Shown one piece after another: positions 10,617-54,396 of a DNA stretch of 64,000 nucleotides. The notes under the pieces were generated by a model. The model did no database searches. It was not told where the DNA came from and saw only the letters and a list, made by a program, of their open reading frames with translations. The position numbers and the translations under genes are program-made. Position 1 is the first letter of the stretch. Every line of letters starts with the position of its first letter. This stretch comes from an uncultured Candidatus Saccharibacteria bacterium. GTDB taxonomy: Bacteria > Patescibacteriota > Minisyncoccia > Phycocordibacterales > UBA12088. The stretch lies in assembly GCA_964409035.1 (NCBI GenBank), contig CAYPBQ010000001.1, positions 28,024-92,023 of the forward strand, read 5' to 3'.

Positions 10617-11885
10617 TCAGTCAATATTGTCTATAGTAGCTACATGATTCCCTGCCACATAGCCGGTCGTCCAGCACAATTGAAGCGAGTAGCCGCCAGA
10701 TGGGCGATTGATATGCAACAAATCACCGGTAACGAAAAGATTTGATACCTTCTTTGACTGCATGGTTCGTGTATCTATTTCAGACAGGACTACTCCGCCA
10801 TCAGCAATTACCGCTCTATCAAAGCCCATGAGCCCTTCAATAGTAATTGGTAGAGCCTTAAGCAAGTGGGTAATGACCTTTCTATCTTCTTTGCTTACAG
10901 AATGCACCCTCGTATCTATATCTACTTTATCCTCCAAAAGTATTTCAATACCCTTTGCCATCCCTTTTGGAACAATTTCTTTCAGGACTGTTCGCAGTGT
11001 TTTGTTTTTATTTACATCAAAGACACTTATTATTCGCCTTTCGAGTGATCCTAGATCAGTATCTGGATACGCATCAACGGTAGCTGTTACCGCACCAGTA
11101 TGTAGTAGATCAGCAACAGAGACCGCACTATTTAATATAAGAGGGCCTGATAATCCAAAGTGCGTGAATAGCAACTTTCCAGTTTTAGAAAACACTCTTT
11201 TACCTTCAAGAAAAAAGGTTATTTTCATAAATGAAAGAGACACCCCTGCAAGCTTTTTACTCCACAACTCTTTAGTAGCAAGAGGTACAATAGTAGGTGT
11301 CGGCTGCTCAACCGTATGCCCAAGTGCCGACAAAAATGCGTACCCGTCTCCCGTTGAGCCAGTCTCAGGGTGCGATACGCCGCCAGTAGCTAGGATGTAG
11401 TGCGTTGCTCTGTAAATTACCTTTCCAGCAACCACATGACTGATACTCCCATTCTCACACACTATATTTGTTATAGGGGTGCCAGTCTGTATATCCACGT
11501 TGCCTTTTTTCACATAGGCTACAAGCACATCAACCACGTCTTGCGCTTTTTGTGTGCTAGGAAAGGCTCTCTTCCTTGCTTCAACAACAATAGGGAGTCG
11601 GCGCGACTCAAAAAAGTGACATGTGTCCTTCATTCCAAATTGTGAGAATGGTGAGTATAAAAATTGCTCCGCATTGCCATAGTGGGAAAGGAGCACTCGT
11701 TCATCCTCTTCTGCATTTGTGATATTGCATCTTCCACCACCGGTAATACTTAGCTTCGCTCCCAGATGCTTATTCTTTTCAATAAGCAGTACCGTAAGTC
11801 CACGCTCAGCCGCGCGGCCCGCAGCAATAAGGCCTGAGGCGCCACCGCCAATTACGATCACATCATACTTCTCGCCGCTATCCAT
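10617..11885 (-). CDS. HI0933/YhiN-family FAD-dependent flavoprotein
   Basis: YDVIVIGGGASGLIAA...GGGRCNITN; a C-terminal family signature is present. Confidence 0.8.
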   Translation of the reverse strand: MDSGEKYDVIVIGGGASGLIAAGRAAERGLTVLLIEKNKHLGAKLSITGGGRCNITNAEEDERVLLSHYGNAEQFLYSPFSQFGMKDTCHFFESRRLPIVVEARKRAFPSTQKAQDVVDVLVAYVKKGNVDIQTGTPITNIVCENGSISHVVAGKVIYRATHYILATGGVSHPETGSTGDGYAFLSALGHTVEQPTPTIVPLATKELWSKKLAGVSLSFMKITFFLEGKRVFSKTGKLLFTHFGLSGPLILNSAVSVADLLHTGAVTATVDAYPDTDLGSLERRIISVFDVNKNKTLRTVLKEIVPKGMAKGIEILLEDKVDIDTRVHSVSKEDRKVITHLLKALPITIEGLMGFDRAVIADGGVVLSEIDTRTMQSKKVSNLFVTGDLLHINRPSGGYSLQLCWTTGYVAGNHVATIDNID

Positions 11886-11905
11886 ACGATTATTCTAGCA
11901 GATAG

Positions 11906-13378
11906 CTACTTAGAAAGATCAAGCACCTCATCAATGCGTATCTGCTCTACAAATTCTGGTACGTGCGAGACTAATATCATTGCCCCCTTGTACGCATCTA
12001 GCGCCTTAGCAATAACAGGTAGGTGTCTAAAGTTTATGTGGTTAGTTGGCTCATCAAGTATGAGAAGTCCCGGTCTTTCAAGTACAAGTCGTGCAAATGC
12101 CACAAGACCTTTTTGCCCCTCTGACAAACGACCGATTTTTGTTTTAATCATCTCTGCGTCAATCAAAAATCCCGCGGCAGTAGCGCGCAAACGCTCCTCT
12201 ACCTTTTGATCCATCACTTCAAGTAGTGATTCAAGTACCGTATGCTCAAAGTTAAGGGTAGAAAAATCCTGTCGATAGTAACCAATACGCACATCCCTCT
12301 CTAGCTCAACACCCTTAGCCTTTCCACTTGCGATACTCTCAAGCAACGTACTCTTGCCAATACCATTTGGCCCAACTAGTAGTAAGTGCTTATTTTTGTT
12401 TAATGATATATCAACTTTGTGTGTCACCACTTTATGATTTTTCATGGTGCTGAGCGAGGTGATATGCACCAATTTTCCTGAGAGCTCCTCCTGATGCGGA
12501 ATAGTAAATGGACGAATAGTCTTATCCTCCTTTCTCACCTCAACCATATCCTCTTCCATTTGCTCTGCCTTTTCTCTCATGCGCTTAGCAAGGAGTCGCA
12601 TCTGTCCGCCCTTATTTGCAAAAAAGTTTGCCTTGTCTTTATTCTCTTGCGCCGTTTTTGCAAGTTGAGCGTTTTTTCTGTTCTCCTTTTCAATTCGAGC
12701 ACTTATGTCTCTAAGTACATCAGTATAGTTACCCGCGTATTGCTCTACCTTTTTAGTGCGTACATCAAGGTATAAGACCCCCTCGGTAAAGGCATTAAGA
12801 AACTCAGTATCATGTGAGATAACAATGATTGATTTTTTGTAGTTTTTTAGAAAGTCAGTAAGGTGCGAGATGCCAGCTTTATCAAGATTATTAGTAGGCT
12901 CATCAAGGAGAAGAAGGTCTGGTTCTTGAATTAGTGCTGATGCTAAGAGTAGTCGCGCCTGTTGCCCACCTGAAAAGGTATTCATTATTCTGTCATGTAC
13001 TTTTTCATGCCCCTTAAGATGTACCACTTCTAGCACCTCATCTATACGAGGGTCGATATCATGTATTTTTTTCGGGAAGCACTTTTGAAAAAACTCTCTC
13101 ACAGAGAGCGTTAGCTCATCACGTGGAATCACTTGCCGCGATAGAGCAATAGACAATCCATGGGATATGTTTATTTTACCCTCCTCAGGAGTGTGTGTGC
13201 CCATCATGAGTGAAAAGATGGTACTTTTGCCCGCGCCATTTTGTCCCATTAGCGCAAGCTTTATTCCCCTTCTCACTGAAAAATCCACCGCATCCAAAAT
13301 GGGCTTATTGTGTCCAAACTCAAATGACACTTTTTCAAATGAAAGAATTGCTTCTGCTTTTGACATATGTACGTACAC
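11906..13378 (-). CDS. ABC-F family ATPase (two ABC domains, no TM domain)
   Basis: Two Walker A motifs (GQNGAGKST, GPNGIGKST), two LSGGQ-like signatures, and a charged linker between them. The start may be the Met at 13366. Confidence 0.85.
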   Translation of the reverse strand: MYVHMSKAEAILSFEKVSFEFGHNKPILDAVDFSVRRGIKLALMGQNGAGKSTIFSLMMGTHTPEEGKINISHGLSIALSRQVIPRDELTLSVREFFQKCFPKKIHDIDPRIDEVLEVVHLKGHEKVHDRIMNTFSGGQQARLLLASALIQEPDLLLLDEPTNNLDKAGISHLTDFLKNYKKSIIVISHDTEFLNAFTEGVLYLDVRTKKVEQYAGNYTDVLRDISARIEKENRKNAQLAKTAQENKDKANFFANKGGQMRLLAKRMREKAEQMEEDMVEVRKEDKTIRPFTIPHQEELSGKLVHITSLSTMKNHKVVTHKVDISLNKNKHLLLVGPNGIGKSTLLESIASGKAKGVELERDVRIGYYRQDFSTLNFEHTVLESLLEVMDQKVEERLRATAAGFLIDAEMIKTKIGRLSEGQKGLVAFARLVLERPGLLILDEPTNHINFRHLPVIAKALDAYKGAMILVSHVPEFVEQIRIDEVLDLSK

Positions 13379-13400
13379 CTTACCAATTCACTTCTACAGT

Positions 13401-13901
13401 CTACTTTTTTGTTGATTTTTTAGTTACAGATACTTTTGCCTTTTTTGGGGCAATAACCTCTTCTTCAATTTCTGGAGCATCATCTGCAATAAGTAACCCC
13501 TCAACCGCGCGAATCAGTCTTTCTAACTTTTGATTTACTGCCTTGAGTTCACTCGTGAGCGCATCCACACCCTCGTTATTTGCGGCGCTACTATGTGCAG
13601 ATTCAGTCACATGTCGCTTGGATGCAAATGATTGTTTAGCTTCTCTATCACCATATCTTCCTTCGGTAGTACCAAAGCATTCTTTGCAATACACCGGCTT
13701 TCCAGGAGATGGTCTAAATGGCACCTCGCACGCCTTTCCACATACAGAGCAAGTAGCCTTAAATAGCTCTAGTCGTTCAGTGCGTGGTGATCGCATTTTA
13801 GAACCGAACACCGCCCTCTGCGATTTAGCGCCACCAAACATAGGCTTTCCGCCCTTTTCATTAAACGACCGTTTTCCGCCCCTATTCATAAATGCTGACA
13901 T
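13401..13901 (-). CDS. CxxC-x17-CxxC zinc-ribbon domain protein with a Lys-rich tail
   Basis: CSVCGKACEVPFRPSPGKPVYCKEC has exactly C-x2-C-x17-C-x2-C. This family is common in Patescibacteria. Confidence 0.65.
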   Translation of the reverse strand: MSAFMNRGGKRSFNEKGGKPMFGGAKSQRAVFGSKMRSPRTERLELFKATCSVCGKACEVPFRPSPGKPVYCKECFGTTEGRYGDREAKQSFASKRHVTESAHSSAANNEGVDALTSELKAVNQKLERLIRAVEGLLIADDAPEIEEEVIAPKKAKVSVTKKSTKK

Positions 13902-13957
13902 AATGAGATGAGTGTGGTCTATTTTTGGCTAAATAGCAAGCCTTTAGGAGTGACTTG

Positions 13958-14362
13958 TTATGCCTGTGGCATTTTGAGTGCTTGATGGATTCCAAACACA
14001 TTATTCTCTGTATCCATAAAATAGGCCTGATGTGCCATTCCAGCAATCTCAAACTTTGGCGTATGTACTGAGCCTCCCGCTGCAAGTATCTTCTCAGACA
14101 TAGCATCTATATCATCTACGACCACTGTGCAGACAAAAGCGTTTACACCCTTACCCTTTTCAAGAGCTACGCCATGCCGCTTGAGGAGGCCGCCACTAAT
14201 ACCAGCTTCTGTGCTACCTTGCGGCGCAGTCATAACCATATAGTAGTCGTACCCAAGCCCCTTCCACTCCTCCATAACCCACCCAAATACGCTAGTATAA
14301 AAGGCAATCGCTCGTGGTATATCATCAACCTGTATTTCAAAATGCATTACTCGATTACTCAT
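13958..14362 (-). CDS. VOC/glyoxalase-bleomycin-resistance family protein
   Basis: 134 aa: HFEIQVDDIPRAIAFYTSVFGW...; paired beta-alpha-beta-beta-beta modules. Confidence 0.7.
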   Translation of the reverse strand: MSNRVMHFEIQVDDIPRAIAFYTSVFGWVMEEWKGLGYDYYMVMTAPQGSTEAGISGGLLKRHGVALEKGKGVNAFVCTVVVDDIDAMSEKILAAGGSVHTPKFEIAGMAHQAYFMDTENNVFGIHQALKMPQA

Positions 14363-14420
14363 GAATGTATTGCTAGATTAATAACTACATACTAACAGTA
14401 TTTTGCACAAACATACATTA

Positions 14421-14825
14421 TTACCAATTTAGATACGTTACCGTGAGCTGAAGGCATGTAGCGAATGTACCCCATAACAGATAAGGGATATTTATATACA
14501 CTACCCATCGCATATCTGGCACTGCATACCAGAGTGCAATGAGCGCCCATACGAGGGTCACCACCACAAGCAAGATATCAATAGAGGCAAGGAGATTGTT
14601 TTGCAACCCAAATTGAATTGGGGTAAATGCAAAGTTAACTATTAGATTAAGTGCAAATGGCAACGCAACAAGCCACGATAATGCGCCAGTATATGCCTTA
14701 TAAAATACCATGCTAAAGGTAACTGCAATTATGGCATACAACACTGTCCACACGGGGCCAAATAGCCACGCAGGTGGCGCCCAAGCAGGCTTAATAAGCG
14801 TGAGATAGTATGTTGGTTCATTCAT
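14421..14825 (-). CDS. tspO: TspO/MBR (tryptophan-rich sensory protein) family
   Basis: KPAWAPPAWLFGPVWTVLY, with five TM helices rich in Trp. Confidence 0.8.
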   Translation of the reverse strand: MNEPTYYLTLIKPAWAPPAWLFGPVWTVLYAIIAVTFSMVFYKAYTGALSWLVALPFALNLIVNFAFTPIQFGLQNNLLASIDILLVVVTLVWALIALWYAVPDMRWVVYINIPYLLWGTFATCLQLTVTYLNW

Positions 14826-14840
14826 ATACGTAGTATAGCA

Positions 14841-14869
14841 TTTGACAACGCATCTTATTCTATATATAT
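14841..14869 (+). promoter_or_regulatory. sigma70 promoter (perfect TTGACA, 17-nt spacer, TATATT) driving the adjacent non-coding RNA
   Basis: ttgaca at 14841-14846, tatatt at 14864-14869. Confidence 0.55.
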
Positions 14870-14875
14870 TCGACT

Positions 14876-15134
14876 CGGTTCAAGCAACACTGACTCTGGC
14901 GGCACACAGGTGCTCTTGTGCGTAGGGTTCGAATCCCTATCAGTGGGTCAATGACTTATAACCTCGAGGCTCAGCATAGATGGGAGACACAGAAACCAGT
15001 GCTGGGGCATTGGCGGAGTCGCAACTGAGATACCATCCCCGAGGTGTGAAATTTGCTTGTGATTGCATGTTGCAAGCAACGTAGTAGACCAGCTTGAACC
15101 ACCACGCCACCCTTCAGGGGTGGCGTTCTTCATT
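14876..15134 (+). ncRNA. ~255-nt structured RNA of undetermined class. It has a 5'/3' closing stem, an internal tRNA-like T-arm and an intrinsic terminator.
   Basis: The 5' ggttcaagc (14876-14884) is perfectly complementary to gcttgaacc (15092-15100). There is a T-arm-like hairpin tagggTTCGAATcccta (14926-14942) and a terminator hairpin acgccaccc-ttca-ggggtggcgt plus T-run (15104-15134). The RNA sits in a 340-bp gap with no credible ORF and no + strand gene downstream. Confidence 0.4.
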
Positions 15135-15162
15135 TTATATAGTGCAACTATTGTAGCTACTA

Positions 15163-15780
15163 CTAGAAACCTAGTTTCTCTTTTACAATAATTACCATCA
15201 CCTTTCTACCCATAAAGGCTGGCTCGCATTCAATGGTGAGCACTTTTGATAGTACAGTGCCTCCCATTCCCACCTCTTTCATACGAACATCTTCAAGAGG
15301 AACCACATACTCACGAATACGTTGCATTGCCTCAGCATGAGTTGGCATTATTTTCTGAGCTCCCACAACAAAAATAATATTTTTTGAGGTAAATACGATA
15401 GGTGGCAACTGGCTCCCTGATGCTGAAGCAATAACAAGCTCGCCACTTTGCGCAAGTGCGTGAACGCTACCAAGATAATATTCAGCAAATAGCGACGCGT
15501 TGCGTAGCTCTTGCTTCTTTGCAGGATCACTCTCAGCAACAACGCTTGCATGCAGGTTATTCCATCCGTGTGTATCAGATTTGAGATACTCCACTAGTCC
15601 AATCTCTTCAAGAGTACGAGATGAGCCGTTATTAACCGAAGCGCCCTGCGGGATAAGCTCAATTACCTTTTGAAGTGCTTCTTCTTTGGTGGCAACCACA
15701 ATTGCCTCAATGTTGCGATCTGCAAGTGCCTTAGTAGTTAGCTCAATAGTGCTGTCGTTGGGTATTGAATCGTAGTTCAT
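15163..15780 (-). CDS. LUD-domain protein (LutC/YkgG family)
   Basis: 205 aa; architecture typical of the lactate-utilisation LUD domain. Confidence 0.6.
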   Translation of the reverse strand: MNYDSIPNDSTIELTTKALADRNIEAIVVATKEEALQKVIELIPQGASVNNGSSRTLEEIGLVEYLKSDTHGWNNLHASVVAESDPAKKQELRNASLFAEYYLGSVHALAQSGELVIASASGSQLPPIVFTSKNIIFVVGAQKIMPTHAEAMQRIREYVVPLEDVRMKEVGMGGTVLSKVLTIECEPAFMGRKVMVIIVKEKLGF

Positions 15781-15842
15781 ATAATATTTGATTACTGGTT
15801 AAAGTGCGGATAACTAACATCACGATTGTACCACGCCATCAA

Positions 15843-16217
15843 TTATAAGGATGCTCTACGCAGACTTTTCTCTTCTTTAAGGCGGAAAGCGACTATTTTT
15901 TTAATGAGCGAAACAGGCAACGGCTCATTGTATGAAAAGCGTATGCATCCTTTAGAATAACTTATATTGCGCTTCGCAAGCTCATCAGCATACGCGGTAA
16001 CACCAGAGGGTGTGGGATAAAAGCCTATGTGACCCTTCATTGCTGCATAGTGGATAAAATTTTTTCCACCAATCCTTATCGTTGGCATGCCATACTTAAT
16101 TACTTCCTCTCCCTTTGGAACAAGTGATGTAATTAATGCCCTTATCTCTTTTACCTTTGGTAAAAGGTTACCATCTACATTCTTTATATACTCTTCTACT
16201 GTGGAATAAACTTTCAT
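15843..16217 (-). CDS. DUF1801 (YdhG-like) domain protein
   Basis: STVEEYI...KYGMPTIRIGGKNFIHYAAMKGHIGFYPTPS...IRFSYNEPLP matches DUF1801. The start was taken at the internal ATG (16217). Confidence 0.6.
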   Translation of the reverse strand: MKVYSTVEEYIKNVDGNLLPKVKEIRALITSLVPKGEEVIKYGMPTIRIGGKNFIHYAAMKGHIGFYPTPSGVTAYADELAKRNISYSKGCIRFSYNEPLPVSLIKKIVAFRLKEEKSLRRASL

Positions 16218-16237
16218 GTATATTTGATGGTATCTAT

Positions 16238-16654
16238 CTATAGACCAAAAAGCCCAATAAGTATTGCAGTTATCCAGCAGCACCCAGAGACTCCTCCCGA
16301 CACCAACAACACGCGCTGCTCATGAGGTAATAGCGATGCATACGGTACTGCTGTTGCCTTGAGCATAAGTCCAGAAATAAAAAAGCTATTCACTAGTAGC
16401 GTAGCCACACACGCTAGCTTGGCATAAAAGAGTGGCTTCTCTAGCATTACCGCCCACATAGGTAGCATGGTCGCAATACCAGTAGTGATAAGAAGCAACA
16501 AGCCAATCATAACCGCGCGGTGTGTCCACACAATCTTTTGCCTACTAATAGTGCCTACCCTGCCGCTAAAGTATGCAATTCCAAGATGATCGCCGTACAA
16601 TATCGCTGGTACGGTGATAATAAGCGCAAGTAAGTGAAGCGATACTGGATCCAT
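16238..16654 (-). CDS. integral membrane protein (4 TM), hypothetical
   Basis: 138 aa, hydrophobic throughout. Its start overlaps the stop of the upstream ORF by 1 nt. Confidence 0.5.
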   Translation of the reverse strand: MDPVSLHLLALIITVPAILYGDHLGIAYFSGRVGTISRQKIVWTHRAVMIGLLLLITTGIATMLPMWAVMLEKPLFYAKLACVATLLVNSFFISGLMLKATAVPYASLLPHEQRVLLVSGGVSGCCWITAILIGLFGL

Positions 16655-17124
16655 TACTTAAGGATTCCTATCTGATAACCAGTGATAGTTTCTTGAGGGC
16701 GAGCATCACCGCTGTGCTGTCCGGTAAATGCAGCAGTTCCGTCAATGCCACAGATACTAAGTATTCGCTTTGCGCCACCAGGGTGCTTTGAAATAAATGT
16801 AGTGAGGTCGTACACATTACCACTTACAATAGTCCAGCATGAGTTTTGGTTATTGTGTAGTGCAACATCAGCAGAGGTGTAGGTAGTAGCGCCAGGTGTA
16901 GACTCCGCTGGTACAGTAGATGGTGACGGCGCAGAAGTAGTTACATCAACAGACGCAGCTCCTGTTTGCGTGGGCGCGCTTGGTGTTACTGTTATATCTG
17001 CATTATTGGTTTCCGACACTGGTGCATTGAGTGTTTGAGTTGCAATCGGTGATACAACAAAGTACGCCCCAAAAGCTATGATAAAGACACCGGCAACAAT
17101 GCCAAGTAATGTTTTTGTTGTCAT
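16654..17124 (-). CDS. membrane-anchored cytochrome b5-like heme-binding domain protein
   Basis: N-terminal TM, a Thr/Pro/Ser-rich linker, then HNNQNSCWTIVSGNVYDLTTFISKHPGG (b5 HPGG motif). Start taken at ATG 17124. Confidence 0.6.
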   Translation of the reverse strand: MTTKTLLGIVAGVFIIAFGAYFVVSPIATQTLNAPVSETNNADITVTPSAPTQTGAASVDVTTSAPSPSTVPAESTPGATTYTSADVALHNNQNSCWTIVSGNVYDLTTFISKHPGGAKRILSICGIDGTAAFTGQHSGDARPQETITGYQIGILK

Positions 17125-17259
17125 ATGTCGATTATATACCAATCCCAATTTTTTTTCATCCAGTGGATGATGTGGGTGCGAGAGCGCTGAGGAAAGGCGT
17201 AATTTTCTATGCACCAAATCGTGACGGCATCATTTTTAACCTATTATGCGCGTAACGTC

Positions 17260-18135
17260 TTACCTCTCCTTCACAGATTCAAGCATTGCAGCCATGTTTG
17301 CGTAATCTTTACTTGCACCTGCGTCAATAATAATAGTGTTGCCATGACTTGCAGCACTTGTGATCGTATCAAGGCGGTTGGTGTCGGTAAGAAACTGAAT
17401 GGCAACATTATTATCAAGACCCGCCTTCTTCATTGTCTCCATTGCCTCCTCAAGCCCACGGGCAATTGCCGTACGCATTTGTGCCATTCCCTCTCCTTGA
17501 AGTTTCTTACTCTCTGCTTCTGCTTGTGCTGCACCGATAAGCTTAATACGTGCTGCCTCCGCCTCATTGCGTGCTGCTTCCATAAGCCTCTTACTCGCAA
17601 TCACTTTGTTAAACGCATCCCTCACTTCAATGCTCGGCTGTGGTTCATCTACAAGCACGTTTTCAATACTATATCCAAACTTTGCAAATTGCTCTGAAAG
17701 AGCAGTCTGTACTTGAGATTCAACCGCGTCGCGGTTAGCATAAAGCTCTGTCATCTCCATTCCTGAAGCTGTTTGTCGCACATTATTGAGAACGTATGAG
17801 GTAATTTGCTTTTCCGGTGACTCAAGTTCGTAGTGTGCCTTCACTGCACCGACAGCATCATCACTTGCCTTGTATTGAACCTTCACCGGCAGCATCATAA
17901 ATGCATTATCACTCGTCTTCACCGACACATCAGCGTGGATTTCCTGAAGCTGCAAATTCACCCGTGCCACTATCGTGGTAATCGGCCATGGCAACTTTAC
18001 ATTAAGCCCAGGAAACACCGCATGTGTGTGCGGCCGCCCAAATGTTTCCAAAATCGCCGCCGTCTTCCCCTTTACTACATACACCATTGACGGCAAAAAA
18101 ATTAACGCAATCACTAAGGCGATAATCCAAAACAT
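17260..18135 (-). CDS. SPFH/band-7 (stomatin/prohibitin-like) protein
   Basis: N-terminal TM, an SPFH core, and a C-terminal Ala/Glu-rich coiled coil. Confidence 0.8.
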   Translation of the reverse strand: MFWIIALVIALIFLPSMVYVVKGKTAAILETFGRPHTHAVFPGLNVKLPWPITTIVARVNLQLQEIHADVSVKTSDNAFMMLPVKVQYKASDDAVGAVKAHYELESPEKQITSYVLNNVRQTASGMEMTELYANRDAVESQVQTALSEQFAKFGYSIENVLVDEPQPSIEVRDAFNKVIASKRLMEAARNEAEAARIKLIGAAQAEAESKKLQGEGMAQMRTAIARGLEEAMETMKKAGLDNNVAIQFLTDTNRLDTITSAASHGNTIIIDAGASKDYANMAAMLESVKER

Positions 18136-20404: not shown

Positions 20405-20519
20405 AGTCGATTGGAATGGCGTGGAAATAATCCTTGCAAAATCCAGTTCAGTAATTGTATCGCTGTTTCCATTTGGGTAAAACGTCGCGTTTCGTGGGCT
20501 CGAACCTAGCTCAACTTTG

Positions 20520-20590
20520 CTGCCGGACTTGGATTCGAACCAAGATACACGCCTCCAAAGGGCGTAGTCCTACCATTAGACGATCCGGCA
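20520..20590 (-). tRNA. tRNA-Gln (anticodon TTG)
   Basis: Hand-folded cloverleaf: acceptor TGCCGGA/TCCGGCA with a U1-A72 pair, D-arm GTCT..GGAC, anticodon loop CTTTGGA, T-arm CTTGG-TTCGAAT-CCAAG. Confidence 0.8.
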
Positions 20591-24519: not shown

Positions 24520-26961
24520 TTATATGGTTATCGTCTGTCCTCTACGAACCTCTCCTGCAATCAATTTATCAGCAACTTTTTGCTCTATTAATTCTTGTAT
24601 TGCTCTATTCATTGGGCGGGCGCCAAATTGCGGATCGTACCCTTCTTTTACTATCGTCTCAAGCATTGCATCTGATACTTCAAGATTGACCCCTTGTTCA
24701 CGCAATCGCTTTTTTAGCTTAGTCAGCATGAGTCCGGCAATTTTTCTAATATCTTCAATAGAAAGCGGATGAAAAACAATCACTCCATCAAAGCGGTTAA
24801 GTAACTCGGGTTTAAATATTCCTCTCTTAATAATTTCATTGGTGAGGTCATCTGCATGTAAAGAAGGGTCAGTGTTACTTTTTGCATACTCCCAAATTTT
24901 ATCGCTTGCAGCGTTTGAGGTTGCTATCACAATAACGTTACGCGCATTCACCCGTTTGCCATGCGCGTCAGAAAATTGCCCTTCGTCAAGAATCTGAAGA
25001 AACAAATCATGGACATCTGGATTTGTTTTTTCAAACTCATCAAGAAGAAGTATGCCGTACTGCCCTTCTCTAAGCGCGCTTGATAGTGTCCCTGCCTTTC
25101 CAGATTGAAATGAGCCTATAAGTCTATCAAGCGCATCTGCGCCTCTATACTCACTCATGTCAAAACGCATGATTTTTTCTTTGTTTCCAAAAAATACTTC
25201 CGCAAGTGCTTTTGTTGTTTCTGTCTTTCCTACACCTGTAGGTCCTAAGAACAAGAATGATCCCATGGGGCGCTCCATATTGCGCACCCCTGCTCGTGAC
25301 CTACGCATAGCCTTTGCTATTGCTGATACCGCTTCCACTTGCCCGATAATCTTTTCATGCAAGCGCTTTTCCAAATCAATAAGCATTTTTTGCTCATCCT
25401 TTGTTGGAGCGCTAAGCGGTATACCTGTTTTACCCTCAACAAGAGTAAGTACATCTTTTTGCAGAATATACTCCTGTTTATTTGCGACAGCAGATGCTAC
25501 TAGCTCGCGCATAAGGTCAAATCCCTTGTCTGGCATTACCCCGTTTGCAAAGTATCTATCCGCGCTTCTGATGATTTCTAAAATCGCCTGGTAGGTGAAA
25601 AACACATTATGCTTTTCTTCAAGTATGAGTGATTCCCGCCCCAAGACTCGCACCAACATATATTCATCAAGATCCTCAACATATACCGTATCGAAAAACT
25701 GCATGATAGTGCCATGCTTTTCAAGTGTGTGGTGATACGCCTGAGGATCATCAGTAAAAATTATTTGTAAATCTTTTGATGAAAAGTATGGAGTCATCAA
25801 ATCAATAACATCAACTCCAATAGCTTTTGTTGCCTCCATAAACGCGGTGACATTTTGTATCACCAAGATGATGTTACCAGCGTAGGCAGACTGATCGAGT
25901 ATTTTTATAAATTCATGTTCAAATGCGCCAGACGCTTTGCCTACCTCTACCATAGCGGTAGGGTTAACAATAAACACTGTCTTATCCATGAGTGGTGGTA
26001 ACGCGCTGCCCTCTCTGATGCGACGAGCAATTCTTGCGATAATTTCCATCTCTCCAATACCTGGCTCTCCAACTAAAAGTACATTTGACTGCCTATTTCG
26101 TGCCAAAATAGTCTCAAGCTTATCTACCTCTTCACGTTCACGCCATGCAAATTGTGATGATTCATACACCACATCTGTCACAATATCGTGACCATACTTG
26201 TCCAAAAAGTATGTCTGTCCGTAGCCAAGTGATCTACCAATAGCAGGAAATCTTCCTAGATTATCTCTGCCCCACCACCGCTGTCGCAATCTGCGCTCTC
26301 TAAAAATTTCTTCTACCCATAATGATGTTCCCAAAAAATCACTTTCTTGGACTTCTTCTTTAAACAAAAATTCTTGCAGTGAGTTGTCTGCGCGATAAAT
26401 CGCTGCTGCATATTTTGAGATGGTTACAGGACCATCACCATAAAATGTTAGTGCTCCACCACTTAGATGCTCTCTGTGTCCTTGCAAAAATTGCTCTCGC
26501 GCCTCATCACGTACTCCTAATCTAGTAAGAATAACACCGCCAAAGTATGAGGTGAGAAAGCCTTCAGTAACATCATAAGGATTGGTTGAGTAGGTAATAG
26601 AACCCACTTCAAAGCTAACCGAAGTTGACGCATGACTTTCAAGCTCTTCAAGAACAAAATCAAGTCCACGATAGTAGTATGATCTCCTAAACCACTCCAA
26701 AAGGGCAAAGATCATCCATACTGAACACAACACAAGAGAGCTACCTACCCACAATGTCTCAAAGCTAGTTATAAACGGTGATACGGAAGGAAAGACAATT
26801 GCAATACCGCCAAGAAGTACTGTCACAAAAAAGGCTACCGCTATAACTCTAGATATCCTTCTGCGTACTGGCGTATCCAACGTAGCCTCAAGCACAAAGA
26901 TAGGTGCAAAGTGTTTGTATACGTATTCTTGTAGATCAGCAAAGCTCATATTACATAACAC
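24520..26961 (-). CDS. Clp/Hsp100-family AAA+ ATPase with an N-terminal TM anchor and a degenerate first nucleotide-binding domain
   Basis: Two N-terminal TM helices. D1 Walker A reads GEPGIGEME instead of GEPGVGKT, and D1 Walker B is not DE. D2 is intact: [18 protein letters not shown], sensor-2 GARP. Confidence 0.8.
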   Translation of the reverse strand: MLCNMSFADLQEYVYKHFAPIFVLEATLDTPVRRRISRVIAVAFFVTVLLGGIAIVFPSVSPFITSFETLWVGSSLVLCSVWMIFALLEWFRRSYYYRGLDFVLEELESHASTSVSFEVGSITYSTNPYDVTEGFLTSYFGGVILTRLGVRDEAREQFLQGHREHLSGGALTFYGDGPVTISKYAAAIYRADNSLQEFLFKEEVQESDFLGTSLWVEEIFRERRLRQRWWGRDNLGRFPAIGRSLGYGQTYFLDKYGHDIVTDVVYESSQFAWREREEVDKLETILARNRQSNVLLVGEPGIGEMEIIARIARRIREGSALPPLMDKTVFIVNPTAMVEVGKASGAFEHEFIKILDQSAYAGNIILVIQNVTAFMEATKAIGVDVIDLMTPYFSSKDLQIIFTDDPQAYHHTLEKHGTIMQFFDTVYVEDLDEYMLVRVLGRESLILEEKHNVFFTYQAILEIIRSADRYFANGVMPDKGFDLMRELVASAVANKQEYILQKDVLTLVEGKTGIPLSAPTKDEQKMLIDLEKRLHEKIIGQVEAVSAIAKAMRRSRAGVRNMERPMGSFLFLGPTGVGKTETTKALAEVFFGNKEKIMRFDMSEYRGADALDRLIGSFQSGKAGTLSSALREGQYGILLLDEFEKTNPDVHDLFLQILDEGQFSDAHGKRVNARNVIVIATSNAASDKIWEYAKSNTDPSLHADDLTNEIIKRGIFKPELLNRFDGVIVFHPLSIEDIRKIAGLMLTKLKKRLREQGVNLEVSDAMLETIVKEGYDPQFGARPMNRAIQELIEQKVADKLIAGEVRRGQTITI

Positions 26962-35784: not shown

Positions 35785-35870
35785 GCTGGGGTGGCGGAAT
35801 GGTAGACGCGATTGACTCAAAATCAATTGCCCGAAAGGGTGTGAGGGTTCAAGTCCCTCCTCCAGCACCA
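35785..35870 (+). tRNA. tRNA-Leu (anticodon CAA), type II with a long variable arm, CCA encoded
   Basis: Hand-folded: acceptor GCTGGGG/CTCCAGC, anticodon stem ATTGA/TCAAT with loop CTCAAAA, variable arm TGCCCGAAAGGGTGTG, T-arm GAGGG-TTCAAGT-CCCTC. Confidence 0.85.
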
Positions 35871-37409: not shown

Positions 37410-37439
37410 GCCTGTATCTCACTCGCTAAGCGCTCGTTG

Positions 37440-37510
37440 CGGGCCCACTCCGACTCGAACGGAGGACGCTGGTTTTGGAGACCAGAATTTTACCTCTAAA
37501 CTATAGGCCC
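37440..37510 (-). tRNA. tRNA-Trp (anticodon CCA)
   Basis: Hand-folded: acceptor GGGCCTA/TGGGCCC, anticodon stem CTGGT/ACCAG with loop CTCCAAA, T-arm CTCCG-TTCGAGT-CGGAG. Confidence 0.85.
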
Positions 37511-41162: not shown

Positions 41163-41248
41163 TGGTGCGCCGGGAGGGATTCGAACCCCCGTAGCCCGAA
41201 GGCGCTTGGTTTACAGCCAAGTGCGATTGACCACTCCGCCACCGACGC
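41163..41248 (-). tRNA. tRNA-Tyr (anticodon GTA), type II, CCA encoded
   Basis: Hand-folded: acceptor GCGTCGG/CCGGCGC, D-stem GCGG/TCGC, anticodon stem CTTGG/CCAAG with loop CTGTAAA, long variable arm, T-arm GGGGG-TTCGAAT-CCCTC. Confidence 0.8.
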
Positions 41249-48744: not shown

Positions 48745-48816
48745 GGCCTGGTGGCGAAGTGGAAACGCTGGGGACTGCAAATCCTCCACGCGCGGGTTCG
48801 ATTCCCGCCCAGGCCT
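48745..48816 (+). tRNA. tRNA-Cys (anticodon GCA)
   Basis: Hand-folded: acceptor GGCCTGG/CCAGGCC, anticodon stem GGGGA/TCCTC with loop CTGCAAA, T-arm GCGGG-TTCGATT-CCCGC. Confidence 0.85.
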
Positions 48817-48873
48817 CTAGAAACACAAACGTGTTTCGCTGAGGCATGGGAGTAGGCAAAGAGTTTTGCCTAC
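48811..48873 (+). repeat. 63-bp direct repeat, copy A. It overlaps the last 6 nt of tRNA-Cys and contains two hairpins.
   Basis: aggcctctagaaacacaaacgtgtttcgctgaggcatgggagtaggcaaagagttttgcctac, repeated at 48995-49057 with 1 mismatch. Confidence 0.7.
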
Positions 48874-49082: not shown

Positions 49083-49166
49083 GCCGGGGTGATGAAATGG
49101 TAGACATAGGAGACTTAAAATTTCTGGGGCATTGCGCCCGTGCGGGTTCGAGTCCCGCCCCCGGCA
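49083..49166 (+). tRNA. tRNA-Leu (anticodon TAA), type II
   Basis: Hand-folded: acceptor GCCGGGG/CCCCGGC, anticodon loop CTTAAAA, variable arm GGGGCATTGCGCCCG, T-arm TGCGGG-TTCGAGT-CCCGC. Confidence 0.8.
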
Positions 49167-49168
49167 CA

Positions 49169-50908: not shown

Positions 50909-50990
50909 GCCGAGGTGGCGAAATGGTAGACGCACTTGCCTTAGGAGCAAGCGGGGCAACCCATGGAGGTTCAAGTCCTCTCCTCGGCAC
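50909..50990 (+). tRNA. tRNA-Leu (anticodon TAG), type II
   Basis: Hand-folded: acceptor GCCGAGG/CCTCGGC, anticodon stem CTTGC/GCAAG with loop CTTAGGA, long variable arm, T-loop TTCAAGT. Confidence 0.8.
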
Positions 50991-54312: not shown

Positions 54313-54385
54313 TCCGCTCGTAGCTCAGTTGGTAGAGCAACTCCCTCTTAAGGAGATGGTCGGAGGTTCGAATCCTCCCGAGCGG
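54313..54385 (+). tRNA. tRNA-Lys (anticodon CTT)
   Basis: Hand-folded: acceptor CCGCTCG/CGAGCGG, D-arm GCTC-AGTTGGTA-GAGC, anticodon loop CTCTTAA, T-arm GGAGG-TTCGAAT-CCTCC. Confidence 0.85.
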
Positions 54386-54396
54386 ACACGTAAGAA

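Follow-up and report, generated by a model that had tools for sequence, protein, structure and literature searches.

The question raised by this locus is what kind of RNA, if any, is made from a gap of 337 nt between a minus-strand TspO gene (ending at 14825) and a LUD gene (starting at 15163) in the 64,000-nt stretch of DNA analysed here (the window). An initial annotation had placed in this gap a stand-alone structured RNA with a tRNA-like T-arm that fitted none of the known classes considered, an interpretation that our sequence comparisons partly support. We show that the gap holds a stand-alone small-RNA (sRNA) gene, about 230 nt long, whose family is found widely among the CPR/Patescibacteria.

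The gene and the RNA classes tested

The gap, first described as a 340-bp stretch free of ORFs, contains only short and unconserved reading frames. The sigma-70-type promoter that had been recognized in it is present (Table 1), and its inferred start, G14877, lies 7 nt downstream of the −10 box and is the first base of the closing stem P1; the same −10-to-+1 spacing is found at tRNA genes of this genome. Promoter-like sites as such are not enriched (4 observed against 4.6 expected). Both hexamers are kept in the relatives L003, L037 and L044, and the spacer has diverged. As proposed initially, the nine nucleotides that open the transcript pair at all nine positions with the nine preceding the terminator (GGTTCAAGC, 14877–14885, with GCTTGAACC, 15092–15100). 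An A:U pair of P1 is replaced by G:C in L044, L037 and L038, and a scripted search located a P1 stem in 14 or more family members. The strong intrinsic terminator also lies where it had been seen, its 10-bp hairpin (15104–15126) being followed by TCTTCATTTT, and a hairpin with a T-run after P1 was noted in many family members. Downstream, the minus-strand LUD gene is convergent, and no gene of the same orientation follows the sRNA.

The predicted mature RNA measures about 228 nt to the ACCA and reaches about 260 nt if the terminator is counted; the structured RNA of the initial annotation stands, with its size of about 255 nt revised. Folding of the single RNA sequence from the window, terminator excluded, modestly outperforms that of shuffled sequences (z = −2.0), and the corresponding value for L044 is −4.2; the decisive indication that the element exceeds chance is comparative. 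Promoter, closing stem, terminator and the gene itself are retained in every close relative examined. We regard as confirmed that this is a real stand-alone small-RNA gene with its own promoter and terminator and a predicted independent transcript.

Table 1. Features of the sRNA gene, in window coordinates
Feature	Position	Strand	Basis or remark
Whole sRNA gene including promoter and terminator	14842–15136	+	
Sigma-70-type promoter: TTGACA 14842–14847, 17-nt spacer, TATATT 14865–14870	14842–14870	+	11/12 consensus match
P1 5′ strand GGUUCAAGC, closes whole RNA	14877–14885	+	9/9 pairs with 15092–15100
RAAC junction (AAC), its C doubling as first S1 base	14886–14888	+	conserved
tRNA-like domain (TLD): stem S1, D-loop-like linker, optional H1, T-arm	14888–14945	+	
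Stem S1, CACUGA × UCAGUG	14888–14893 × 14940–14945	+	covariation
D-loop-like linker carrying UGG	14894–14901	+	
Optional hairpin H1	14902–14921	+	
T-arm UAGGG-UUCGAAU-CCCUA	14923–14939	+	T-stem covaries
P2 5′ strand GGUC, pairs with GACC 15087–15090	14946–14949	+	MFE folds
Replica of 23S rRNA L1 stalk (helices 76–78), largest conserved module	14961–15045	+	Rfam LSU model
H76, CCUCG × CGAGG	14962–14966 × 15040–15044	+	
L1 T-loop strand 1, AGCAUAG	14973–14979	+	
H77, GAUGG × CCAUC, GGGAG motif next	14979–14983 × 15033–15037	+	
GAC × GUC	14986–14988 × 15018–15020	+	
H78	14996–15013	+	
GGAGUC motif	15015–15020	+	
L1 T-loop strand 2, UGAGAUACC	15026–15034	+	
Lineage-specific hairpin f, 11-bp stem, inserted between H76 and P2	15053–15079	+	folds
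P2 3′ strand GACC (15087–15090) and P1 3′ strand GCUUGAACC (15092–15100)	15087–15100	+	pairing
ACCA immediately 3′ of P1	15101–15104	+	genus-specific
Intrinsic terminator: 10-bp G+C-rich hairpin (15104–15126) ACGCCACCC-UUC-GGGGUGGCGU, then UCUUCAUUUU	15104–15136	+	kept in relatives

The initial annotation could not match the RNA to tmRNA, RNase P RNA, SRP RNA or 6S RNA, and Rfam and ARAGORN likewise find none of them here. For RNase P, SRP and 6S RNA there is no Rfam match at the gathering threshold or at E values up to 10, and the P4/CR-I motif GAAAGUCC and the GGAA...AGCAGC motif of SRP helix 8 are absent from the sequence. An SRP Alu domain, a 6S RNA and YrlA were each set aside for lack of an Rfam match. 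A reduced RNase P RNA was considered on account of ACAGAAACC, which recalls CR-IV/V but is the H77–H78 junction of an L1 stalk. The tmRNA models of Rfam, even with lax filters, and ARAGORN, permuted forms included, gave no match; 150 nt separate the T-arm from the 3′ end, the third pair is U:A in the closing stem and A:U in S1, with no G3:U70, and there is no tag frame, nor is the T-arm followed by the 5′ acceptor strand expected of a permuted two-piece form. The tRNA model (RF00005) found nothing at E values up to 10 with lax filters, even in a 91-nt search, nor did ARAGORN, and the eight true tRNAs of the window, which served as a control, score 53–71 bits. A tRNA gene interrupted by an intron or another insertion was rejected in that the 40-nt stretch from P1 to the T-arm lacks a D-arm and a 7-nt anticodon loop. 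A small protein gene was dismissed in turn: indels throw the reading frames out of register between the window, L044 and L003, so that no frame, and none of the short ORFs, is conserved among the three. A T-box leader finds neither an Rfam T-box match nor a downstream gene in the same orientation.

The L1-stalk module and the tRNA-like domain

In 23S rRNA the L1 stalk comprises helices 76–78, at about positions 2093–2196 in E. coli. Judged by its match to the Rfam model, the segment 14961–15045 is an almost complete copy of this stalk, which changes the identity of the RNA. The window module matches positions 2128–2213 of LSU_rRNA_bacteria (37.7 bits, E = 1.3e-10), and the L044 module scores 42.3 bits. 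A 23S rRNA gene (RF02541), full-length or fragmented, was ruled out, as these positions alone of 2925 are matched, at a score below the gathering threshold of 50, and as the RNA of 230 nt is bracketed by promoter and terminator with no rRNA in the window; the low score arises because just 86 model positions are present. The module scores clearly when searched in small windows, and a routine Rfam scan of the contig misses it because filters drop it. This marks a practical blind spot of such scans.

The stalk head is complete, with H77, H78, the GAC/GUC pairs, two interdigitated T-loops and the nucleotides of the GGGAG, GGAGUC (GGAGYC as a consensus) and UGARAUACCAC motifs that define the L1-stalk fold. 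Every conserved feature of the uL1-binding site (H77, GGGAG, GGAGUC and H78) is among those retained. Over 37 sequences these helices are 93–100% paired and covary on both sides (H77, 97.8% of cells; GAC/GUC, 100%, as A:U in 28 sequences and G:C in 9; H78, 93%); H76 is only 66% paired in the automatic alignment. AG-AUAGG and UGGGAGRC, both absent from the search pattern, yet vary little or not at all across the family. The "other hairpins" of the initial annotation belong to this module, which it had missed: the cctcgagg...ccccgagg pairing is real and corresponds to H76, but ctcag...ctgag makes no helix in this fold, its segments being the two T-loop strands of the stalk head. A CsrA-type sponge or an RNA rich in Shine-Dalgarno motifs was considered in view of the repeated GGAG and GGGAG, but the consensus of the L1 stalk accounts for these repeats. 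An autoregulatory uL1 mRNA leader acting in cis was also rejected on its position, with a convergent LUD gene downstream, no rplA or rplK in the window and no conserved neighbour.

The T-arm of tRNA form first noticed at this locus is genuine and belongs to a tRNA-like domain (TLD). The closing pair of S1 is C:G in 34 of 35 scored sequences, and the remaining S1 pairs and the T-stem covary; the strand 3′ of the T-arm covaries with S1, not with P1. In both members checked by eye, S1 and the T-stem add up to 11 bp (6 + 5 in the window, 4 + 7 in L091); the acceptor/T arm of a tRNA has 12 bp. From S1 to the T-arm the linker spans 6–53 nt across the family. With S1 as the acceptor-like helix stacked on the canonical T-arm, the UGG in a short linker might complete a tRNA elbow.

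The junction residues A5, A6 and C7 are invariant or nearly so (alignments A4 and A6), and P2 helices are longer in other family members. The bases 3′ of the P2 5′ strand (AAU-GA) look like a kink-turn bulge; read by eye, L044 resembles the perfect K-turn consensus (GGUC-AAC-GA / GA-GACC), to which the window is a poorer fit, and L003 has lost the P2 5′ strand and carries GAUC in place of GACC. At the position of hairpin f, L044 and L003 have a hairpin of unrelated sequence and short members such as L079 and L091 have none, so it is no family feature. The ACCA occurs in the window, L003, L037, L038 and L044, and no NCCA follows P1 in L066, L068, L071, L075, L079, L081, L091, L093, L096 or L098. 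As a functional 3′ end it was thus rejected as a family feature, as was a tRNA-like end built from the closing stem and ACCA. The tRNA-like domain is closed by its own internal 6-bp stem and not by the ends of the RNA.

Several known systems share parts of this design. The 85-nt module aligns position by position with the 23S L1 stalk and shares its helices, T-loop strands, motifs and covariation; unlike the ribosomal stalk, it lies outside an rRNA gene, far from any rRNA, and is fused to the TLD. The rplK-rplA (L11 operon) leader and the archaeal L1 operon site are likewise extra-ribosomal mimics of the uL1 site, but they are short cis-acting mRNA elements that copy the H77 core only, whereas the sRNA has the full stalk head with H76 and H78, stands alone away from rplK/rplA and occurs in a class reported to lack uL1 (PMC12641178). 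With the TLD of tmRNA it has in common an acceptor-like stem on a canonical T-arm, a stemless D-loop analogue with UGG near the acceptor strand and a helix in place of the anticodon arm; in contrast to tmRNA, the domain is internal and junction-closed, without an aminoacylatable 3′ end, G3:U70, tag reading frame or pseudoknot ring. YrlA, a bacterial Y RNA, is also an end-paired non-coding RNA with an internal TLD and a consensus T-loop. It has no rRNA-like module, however, and the sRNA has no visible Ro-binding motif; a Y RNA was rejected as no TROVE-domain (rsr/Ro60) gene is found among the 10 genes at 10617–18135 and Rfam gives no match. A double T-loop platform on which a tRNA elbow docks is common to the L1 stalk, RNase P and T-box stem I (PMC4810234). 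Of these, T-box stem I and the specificity domain of RNase P resemble the sRNA in their distal platform of interdigitated T-loops, length-constrained stem and kink-like basal loop; the sRNA differs from both in that its platform is an L1-stalk copy in sequence and its ligand-like elbow is built in, and in having no specifier, antiterminator or catalytic domain.

Spread and variation of the family

To sample the family, 185,579 species genomes were scanned with a pattern of a T-loop followed by the L1-stalk motif; this pattern demanded the T-loop and part of the L1 motif, and the family is thus sampled as two-module loci. The scan gave 38 loci, 35 of them true homologues (about 35 species), nearly all in CPR/Patescibacteria and in several of their classes; a contig labelled 'Gammaproteobacteria' encodes CPR-like proteins. 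No match was found with the same pattern on 2.9 million viral contigs. A covariance model, R1, recovered 37 of 37 members at 77–128 bits and none of three chance loci. The initial annotation had named conservation of the pairing pattern in relatives as the check, and the pattern is indeed kept through compensatory changes. In a MAFFT alignment, which is not fitted to structure, 86% of cells are paired against 66% in shuffles, and the covariation score of 0.58 (against 0.20) was reached by none of 500 shuffles; the model-fitted alignment gave 87.5% against 64% and 0.615 against 0.19, again with 0 of 500 shuffles, and slid controls on that alignment gave at most 0.155. In all 24 members measured, 30–34 nt separate the T-stem from the first L1 T-loop motif, although the scan itself tolerated a range 30 nt wide.

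Each homologue appears to be a stand-alone gene, with promoter- and terminator-like sequences noted in many. There is no conserved protein neighbour across the 35 loci, rRNA was found neither in the window nor at family loci, and the gene is unlinked to rplK/rplA, neither of which occurs in the window. Other routes to homologues were less productive: synteny with the LUD gene is gone at about 70% protein identity, and two core sequence patterns gave no match in a genome scan and 28 matches in a metagenome scan, all by chance in high-G+C coding DNA, and two patterns run on viral contigs picked up phage tRNA arrays only. No Rfam 15 family matches this RNA design, and we found no earlier description of such an RNA in the literature.

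The distribution of the family bears on its relation to the ribosome. The L1 region of CPR is unusually variable, with class-specific loss of uL1, H78 and Der (PMC9297842, PMC12641178). Class Paceibacteria is reported to lack rplA, the gene for uL1 (PMC12641178), and members are present in Paceibacteria-type lineages (Kaiser-, Wolfebacteria, Paceibacterota), intact and covarying. The 23S rRNA of ABY1 and Microgenomatia is reported to lack H78 (PMC12641178), and members from these lineages (L080, L084) keep H78 in the sRNA, so the module cannot have been copied recently from the local 23S rRNA. We infer from both sets of members that the role of the RNA may not be tied to uL1 alone.

Within the genus of the window the gene is less stable. 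In three of five variants part of the L1 module or the entire TLD is deleted, between short repeats, and L003 lacks the whole TLD; at least some populations of the genus can therefore do without the full RNA. The suggestion of a housekeeping RNA of the lineage is accordingly too narrow, because the family spans many CPR classes, and too strong, because strains of the genus carry whole-module deletions.

What the RNA may do

We picture the RNA as a rod of P1, P2 and helix 76, with the L1-stalk head at its distal end and a minimal tRNA-like domain branching from its base. In ribosomes, the T-loop platform of the L1 stalk has the elbow of the E-site tRNA as its RNA ligand; here an elbow appears tethered to that platform at a near-fixed distance, with a kink-like internal loop between, an arrangement that predicts docking in cis within the same molecule. 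The folded RNA would then be a free mimic of the exit-site state in which the L1 stalk holds a tRNA, and might act as a decoy or adaptor for factors recognizing that state: uL1 where it is present and elsewhere proteins that bind the E site, for example ABC-F ATPases or EF-P-like factors. Topology and spacing suggest this docked mimic, which we put forward tentatively, as somewhat short of probable; an RNA docked on itself could just as well serve something else as a rigid scaffold. It is more doubtful that the RNA serves CPR translation as a free L1 stalk clamped on a built-in elbow and working with the exit site, where it might bind or control ABC-F proteins, EF-P or uL1, or act on L1-reduced ribosomes. 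To our knowledge, few RNAs mimic a different nucleic acid of the cell, and a mechanism came to light with each of them. 6S RNA mimics an open promoter, tmRNA a tRNA and an mRNA, CsrB mRNA leaders, and ribosomal-protein leaders rRNA. A stand-alone copy of a mobile ribosome domain with its natural ligand, the tRNA elbow, tethered to it would, if true, be a new type.

Other explanations seem less likely. Binding of uL1 to rRNA-mimic sites is established biology, and with all conserved features of that site kept, the RNA could be a sponge or trans autoregulator that binds free uL1 and buffers expression of uL1 and the L11 operon, the TLD adding affinity. Decay of the L1 module in the genus would fit loss of the partner in rplA-less Paceibacteria (PMC12641178), yet intact copies persist in the Paceibacteria-type lineages despite their reported lack of uL1, the universal elbow at a fixed distance is left unexplained and the gene is unlinked to rplK/rplA, which makes such a role unlikely. 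We give still less credence to a ribosome-associated RNA whose TLD docks on the E site or on the ribosome's own L1 stalk while the copy supplements or modulates the reduced CPR L1 region, perhaps as a hibernation-type E-site plug. The variability of that region (PMC9297842, PMC12641178), H78 kept in the sRNA where the 23S rRNA lacks it and a strong promoter like those of the genome's stable-RNA genes speak for it; S1, however, lacks a free CCA end that could reach into the E-site pocket, no rRNA-complementary sequence was identified, deletion variants show that the RNA is non-essential, and the CPR ribosome literature, in which we found no CPR ribosome structure, reports no extra RNA. Improbable, too, is a platform that captures the elbows of cellular tRNAs in trans, as chaperone, sensor or sponge, with the cis TLD autoinhibitory or dimerizing. 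The long stem of constrained length, the K-turn-like basal loop and the distal double T-loop platform do parallel T-box stem I (PMC4810234), but the tethered elbow would out-compete free tRNA, and an Rfam T-box match, a specifier- or antiterminator-like element and a downstream gene in the same orientation are all absent.

Two further possibilities are hard to reconcile with the comparative data. Module deletions in the genus, the absence of a known function and the superficially debris-like look of an rRNA fragment beside a tRNA-like one might suggest a non-functional relic, a chimeric pseudogene, transcribed or not. We strongly disfavour it: 37 members in several CPR classes share one architecture with compensatory changes in every helix tested, many have promoter- and terminator-like sequences, the module spacing is fixed, and H78 persists where the 23S rRNA has lost it. 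Least credible of all, and already refuted, is a divergent tmRNA (one-piece or permuted), RNase P, SRP or 6S RNA, for which one might cite the tmRNA-style stemless D-loop, the length of about 230 nt, the closing stem, the ACCA of the genus and the divergence of CPR RNase P RNAs (PMC8172020). Neither Rfam, at E values up to 10 and in short windows, nor ARAGORN matches these families; the T-arm does not border the 3′ end, G3:U70, a conserved frame and the P4/CR-I and SRP helix 8 motifs are missing, and L003 lacks the TLD.

The exit-site reading of the docked mimic would, if true, connect the RNA with the ribosomes of CPR, whose peculiarities have long been noted. The family sits in a radiation with an eroded L1 region, and therefore offers a testable handle on how CPR ribosomes cope. 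An ABC-F gene at 11906–13378 lies 1.5 kb from the sRNA, a synteny limited to the genus.

An L1-stalk copy joined to a tRNA-like domain

The small stand-alone RNA encoded in the gap between the TspO/MBR and LUD-domain genes contains a bona fide L1-stalk fold together with a tRNA-like elbow module. In a permissive Rfam search, the corresponding 356-nt gap of L044, a contig of a same-genus relative, matched positions 2128–2213 of the bacterial LSU rRNA model (42.3 bits, E = 1.2e-11), which are helices 76–78 (H76–H78) of the L1 stalk, and the window gave the same match (37.7 bits, E = 1.3e-10) when 116 nt were searched. The cctcg...cgagg pairing described in the initial annotation is real and corresponds to H76 of this copy in the model alignment. 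In H77 the window has GAUGG/CCAUC where L044 has AGUGG/CCACU, a difference of two compensatory pairs, and the alignment also takes in the GAC/GUC pairs, H78 and every conserved unpaired nucleotide of the stalk head. The match, with E ~1e-10 at 116–356 nt, was lost to the cmscan speed filters in searches of 500 nt or 64 kb; routine scans can therefore miss short rRNA-like modules.

Other elements of the initial annotation were also recovered: a TTGACA-17-TATATT promoter (by sequence reading and scanning), a T-arm of tRNA form (TAGGG-TTCGAAT-CCCTA), a terminator made of a 10-bp G+C-rich hairpin and a T-run, and perfect pairing of the first nine bases, GGTTCAAGC, with GCTTGAACC to form the closing stem (P1). 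The paired stretch starts at G14877, 7 nt downstream of the promoter, and ACCA lies directly 3′ of the closing stem. Both flanking genes are on the minus strand, making the RNA gene an independent plus-strand unit. Since promoter-like matches showed no excess over shuffled sequence, and the energy of the single-sequence fold departs only moderately from expectation (z = -2.0), the case must rest on cross-genome comparison.

At gathering thresholds, Rfam detected only eight tRNAs in the whole window, all elsewhere, and a permissive search of 500 nt gave noise only. The T-arm-bearing 5′ part had no match among tRNA and tmRNA models, and ARAGORN found neither in the region. The initial annotation could not match the RNA to tmRNA, RNase P, SRP or 6S RNA, and the Rfam scan and membership tests rejected these classes. 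The membership tests also rejected a tRNA, a Y RNA, a T-box, an rRNA gene and a cis leader of the L11/L1 operon. This RNA is not represented by any family in Rfam 15, and no prior description of such an RNA was found in the open-access full-text literature, where the papers found cover ribosome reduction in the Patescibacteria radiation (CPR) and tRNA-elbow recognition.

Coordinates of the RNA gene, its parts and variants, and other features
Feature	Sequence	Position	Strand
RNA gene	window	14842-15136	plus
Promoter	window	14842-14870	plus
T-arm	window	14923-14939	plus
LSU rRNA (L1-stalk) match	window	14961-15045	
3′ strand of closing stem	window	15092-15100	plus
Terminator	window	15104-15136	plus
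TspO/MBR protein gene, flanking	window	14421-14825	minus
LUD-domain protein gene, flanking	window	15163-15780	minus
Two-ABC-domain protein gene	window	11906-13378	minus
tRNA genes (8)	window	20519-20590, 35785-35870, 37439-37510, 41163-41248, 48745-48817, 49083-49167, 50909-50990, 54314-54387	
tRNA-Pro(tgg) call	window	26146-26237	minus
ORF containing this call	window	24520-26961	minus
Longer full-length form	L044	1345-1590	minus
LSU rRNA (L1-stalk) match	L044	1414-1499	
Deletion variant	L037	2270-2443	minus
Deletion variant (L038-L043)	L038	847-1021	minus
Deletion variant	L003	3640-3830	minus

Conservation and covariation

The names carried by homologues of the flanking proteins point to a Patescibacteria (CPR) source of the Paceibacteria type. 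The RNA gene occupies the same gap on all contigs with close TspO homologues (91–100% identity); once the flanking proteins drop to ~70–84% identity, neither synteny nor the gap persists. Close relatives keep the promoter hexamers, P1, ACCA and the terminator, whereas the promoter spacer has diverged. Between the full-length window and L044 forms, compensatory changes are found in P1 (A:U to G:C), in the stem closing the T-arm domain (CACUGA/UCAGUG to CACCGG/UCGGUG) and in the hairpin upstream of the T-arm (CACA/UGUG to CGCA/UGCG). The genus holds five length variants, each recovered from several independent samples: the window form, the slightly longer L044 form (with identical copies) and three internally deleted forms, in which deletions run between short internal direct repeats (GGGAGACA and CAGCAC, each twice). 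The modules lost differ among the deletion variants, L003 lacking the whole T-arm domain; the existence of these variants indicates that this genus can dispense with the RNA.

The same architecture is conserved across the CPR. A genome scan with the pattern T-loop GGTTCRANNCC, 60–90 nt, GGAGNC, 4–10 nt, TGANATACCA returned 38 loci, 35 of them clearly homologous and three rejected as chance hits inside coding sequence of unrelated bacteria; 2.9 million viral contigs gave no match. By the taxon labels in the records, the homologues belong to MAGs named Paceibacterota, Parcubacteria, Kaiser-, Wolfe-, Sungii-, Falkow- and Woykebacteria, Saccharimonadales and generic Patescibacteria. A few members (L072, L083, L089, L092, L094 and L098) carry non-CPR labels (Gammaproteobacteria, Bdellovibrionales or Roseovarius); for L072, the named proteins closest to that of a neighbouring gene come from Parcubacteria/Patescibacteria, and that label at least looks unreliable. 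Invariance at the 24 positions fixed by the pattern is by construction, but AG-AUAGG and UGGGAGRC, outside it, are nonetheless invariant or nearly so. A covariance model trained on 21 members, short-calibrated and thus giving rough E-values, scored all 37 sequences at 77–128 bits and the deletion variants at 41–50 bits, and left the three chance loci unscored. No protein family recurs beside the RNA gene in the neighbourhoods of the family loci.

The covariation analysis suggested in the initial annotation showed that the helices covary across the family. A plain MAFFT alignment shows pairing in 86% of the cells of the T-stem, H77, GAC/GUC and H78, compared with 66% in shuffles; none of 500 shuffles attained its covariation score (0.58 versus 0.20). 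In the model-fitted alignment, which includes the acceptor-like stem closing the tRNA-like domain (S1), these values are 87.5% versus 64% and 0.615 versus 0.19 (slid controls ≤0.155). GAC/GUC switches cleanly, being A:U in 28 sequences and G:C in nine. S1 is preceded by a conserved RAA and opens with a C:G pair in 34 of 35 scored sequences; in the two members inspected by eye, the window and the distant L091, S1 and the T-stem total 11 bp, close to the 12 bp of a tRNA acceptor/T arm, while the S1-to-T-arm linker spans 6–53 nt and usually contains UGG. The conserved core of the tRNA-like domain is thus an acceptor/T minihelix with elbow-closing elements, as in the tRNA-like domain of tmRNA. In all 24 members measured, 30–34 nt separate the T-stem from the first L1 T-loop motif. 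A scripted search located P1 in at least 14 members, with hairpins and T-runs but no NCCA downstream of it. The next helix, P2, is present in folds of many members. Support is weaker for P2, H76 and the putative K-turn than for the remaining helices. We are highly confident that the RNA gene is genuine, that it is conserved and that it carries these modules.

Possible function and partners

In the ribosome, the T-loop platform of the L1 stalk receives the tRNA elbow as its RNA partner (PMC4810234). In the present RNA, an elbow is linked to an L1-type platform at a nearly constant spacing and a kink-like loop lies between them, so the simplest expectation is that it would dock intramolecularly on the RNA's own platform. 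The docked RNA would be a free replica of an L1 stalk holding an E-site tRNA, a mechanism that we put forward tentatively. A role in binding uL1 alone, the ribosomal protein encoded by rplA, is unlikely: rplA is reportedly absent from Paceibacteria (PMC12641178), yet Paceibacteria-type members keep intact copies of the RNA, and ABY1 and Microgenomatia members keep H78 despite its reported loss from the 23S rRNA of these groups (PMC12641178, PMC9297842). We accordingly prefer a reading in which the RNA would serve exit-site-recognising factors as a decoy or adaptor, with uL1 as one ligand where present.

Confidence in any specific partner is low. The product of a gene 1.5 kb from the RNA gene has 490 aa and two ABC domains but lacks a membrane domain; its best NCBIfam match is the ribosomal-protection-like ABC-F family (327 bits, short of the cutoff of 380). 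Binding of ABC-F proteins to the ribosome takes place at the E site, beside the L1 stalk. Synteny of the two genes is limited to the window's genus, and this candidate partner is therefore a lead and not evidence.

tRNA genes

CCA is encoded by only two of the eight tRNA genes in the window. ARAGORN additionally called a 92-nt tRNA-Pro(tgg) with no Rfam counterpart; it lies inside an 813-aa ORF on the same strand and is probably a false positive. In at least four tRNA genes (three tRNA-Leu and tRNA-Lys), a -10-like box (TATAGT, TATATT or TATAAT) ends ~8–12 nt before +1, so that the transcripts may have little or no 5′ leader; the promoter-to-+1 layout of the RNA gene is similar. In L092 (about 189–468), a distant family member, tRNA-gene-like sequences flank the RNA gene on both sides, a T-arm and acceptor end on the upstream side and GGTAGCTCAGTTGGTAGAG on the downstream side, and the RNA gene there may be part of a stable-RNA gene cluster.
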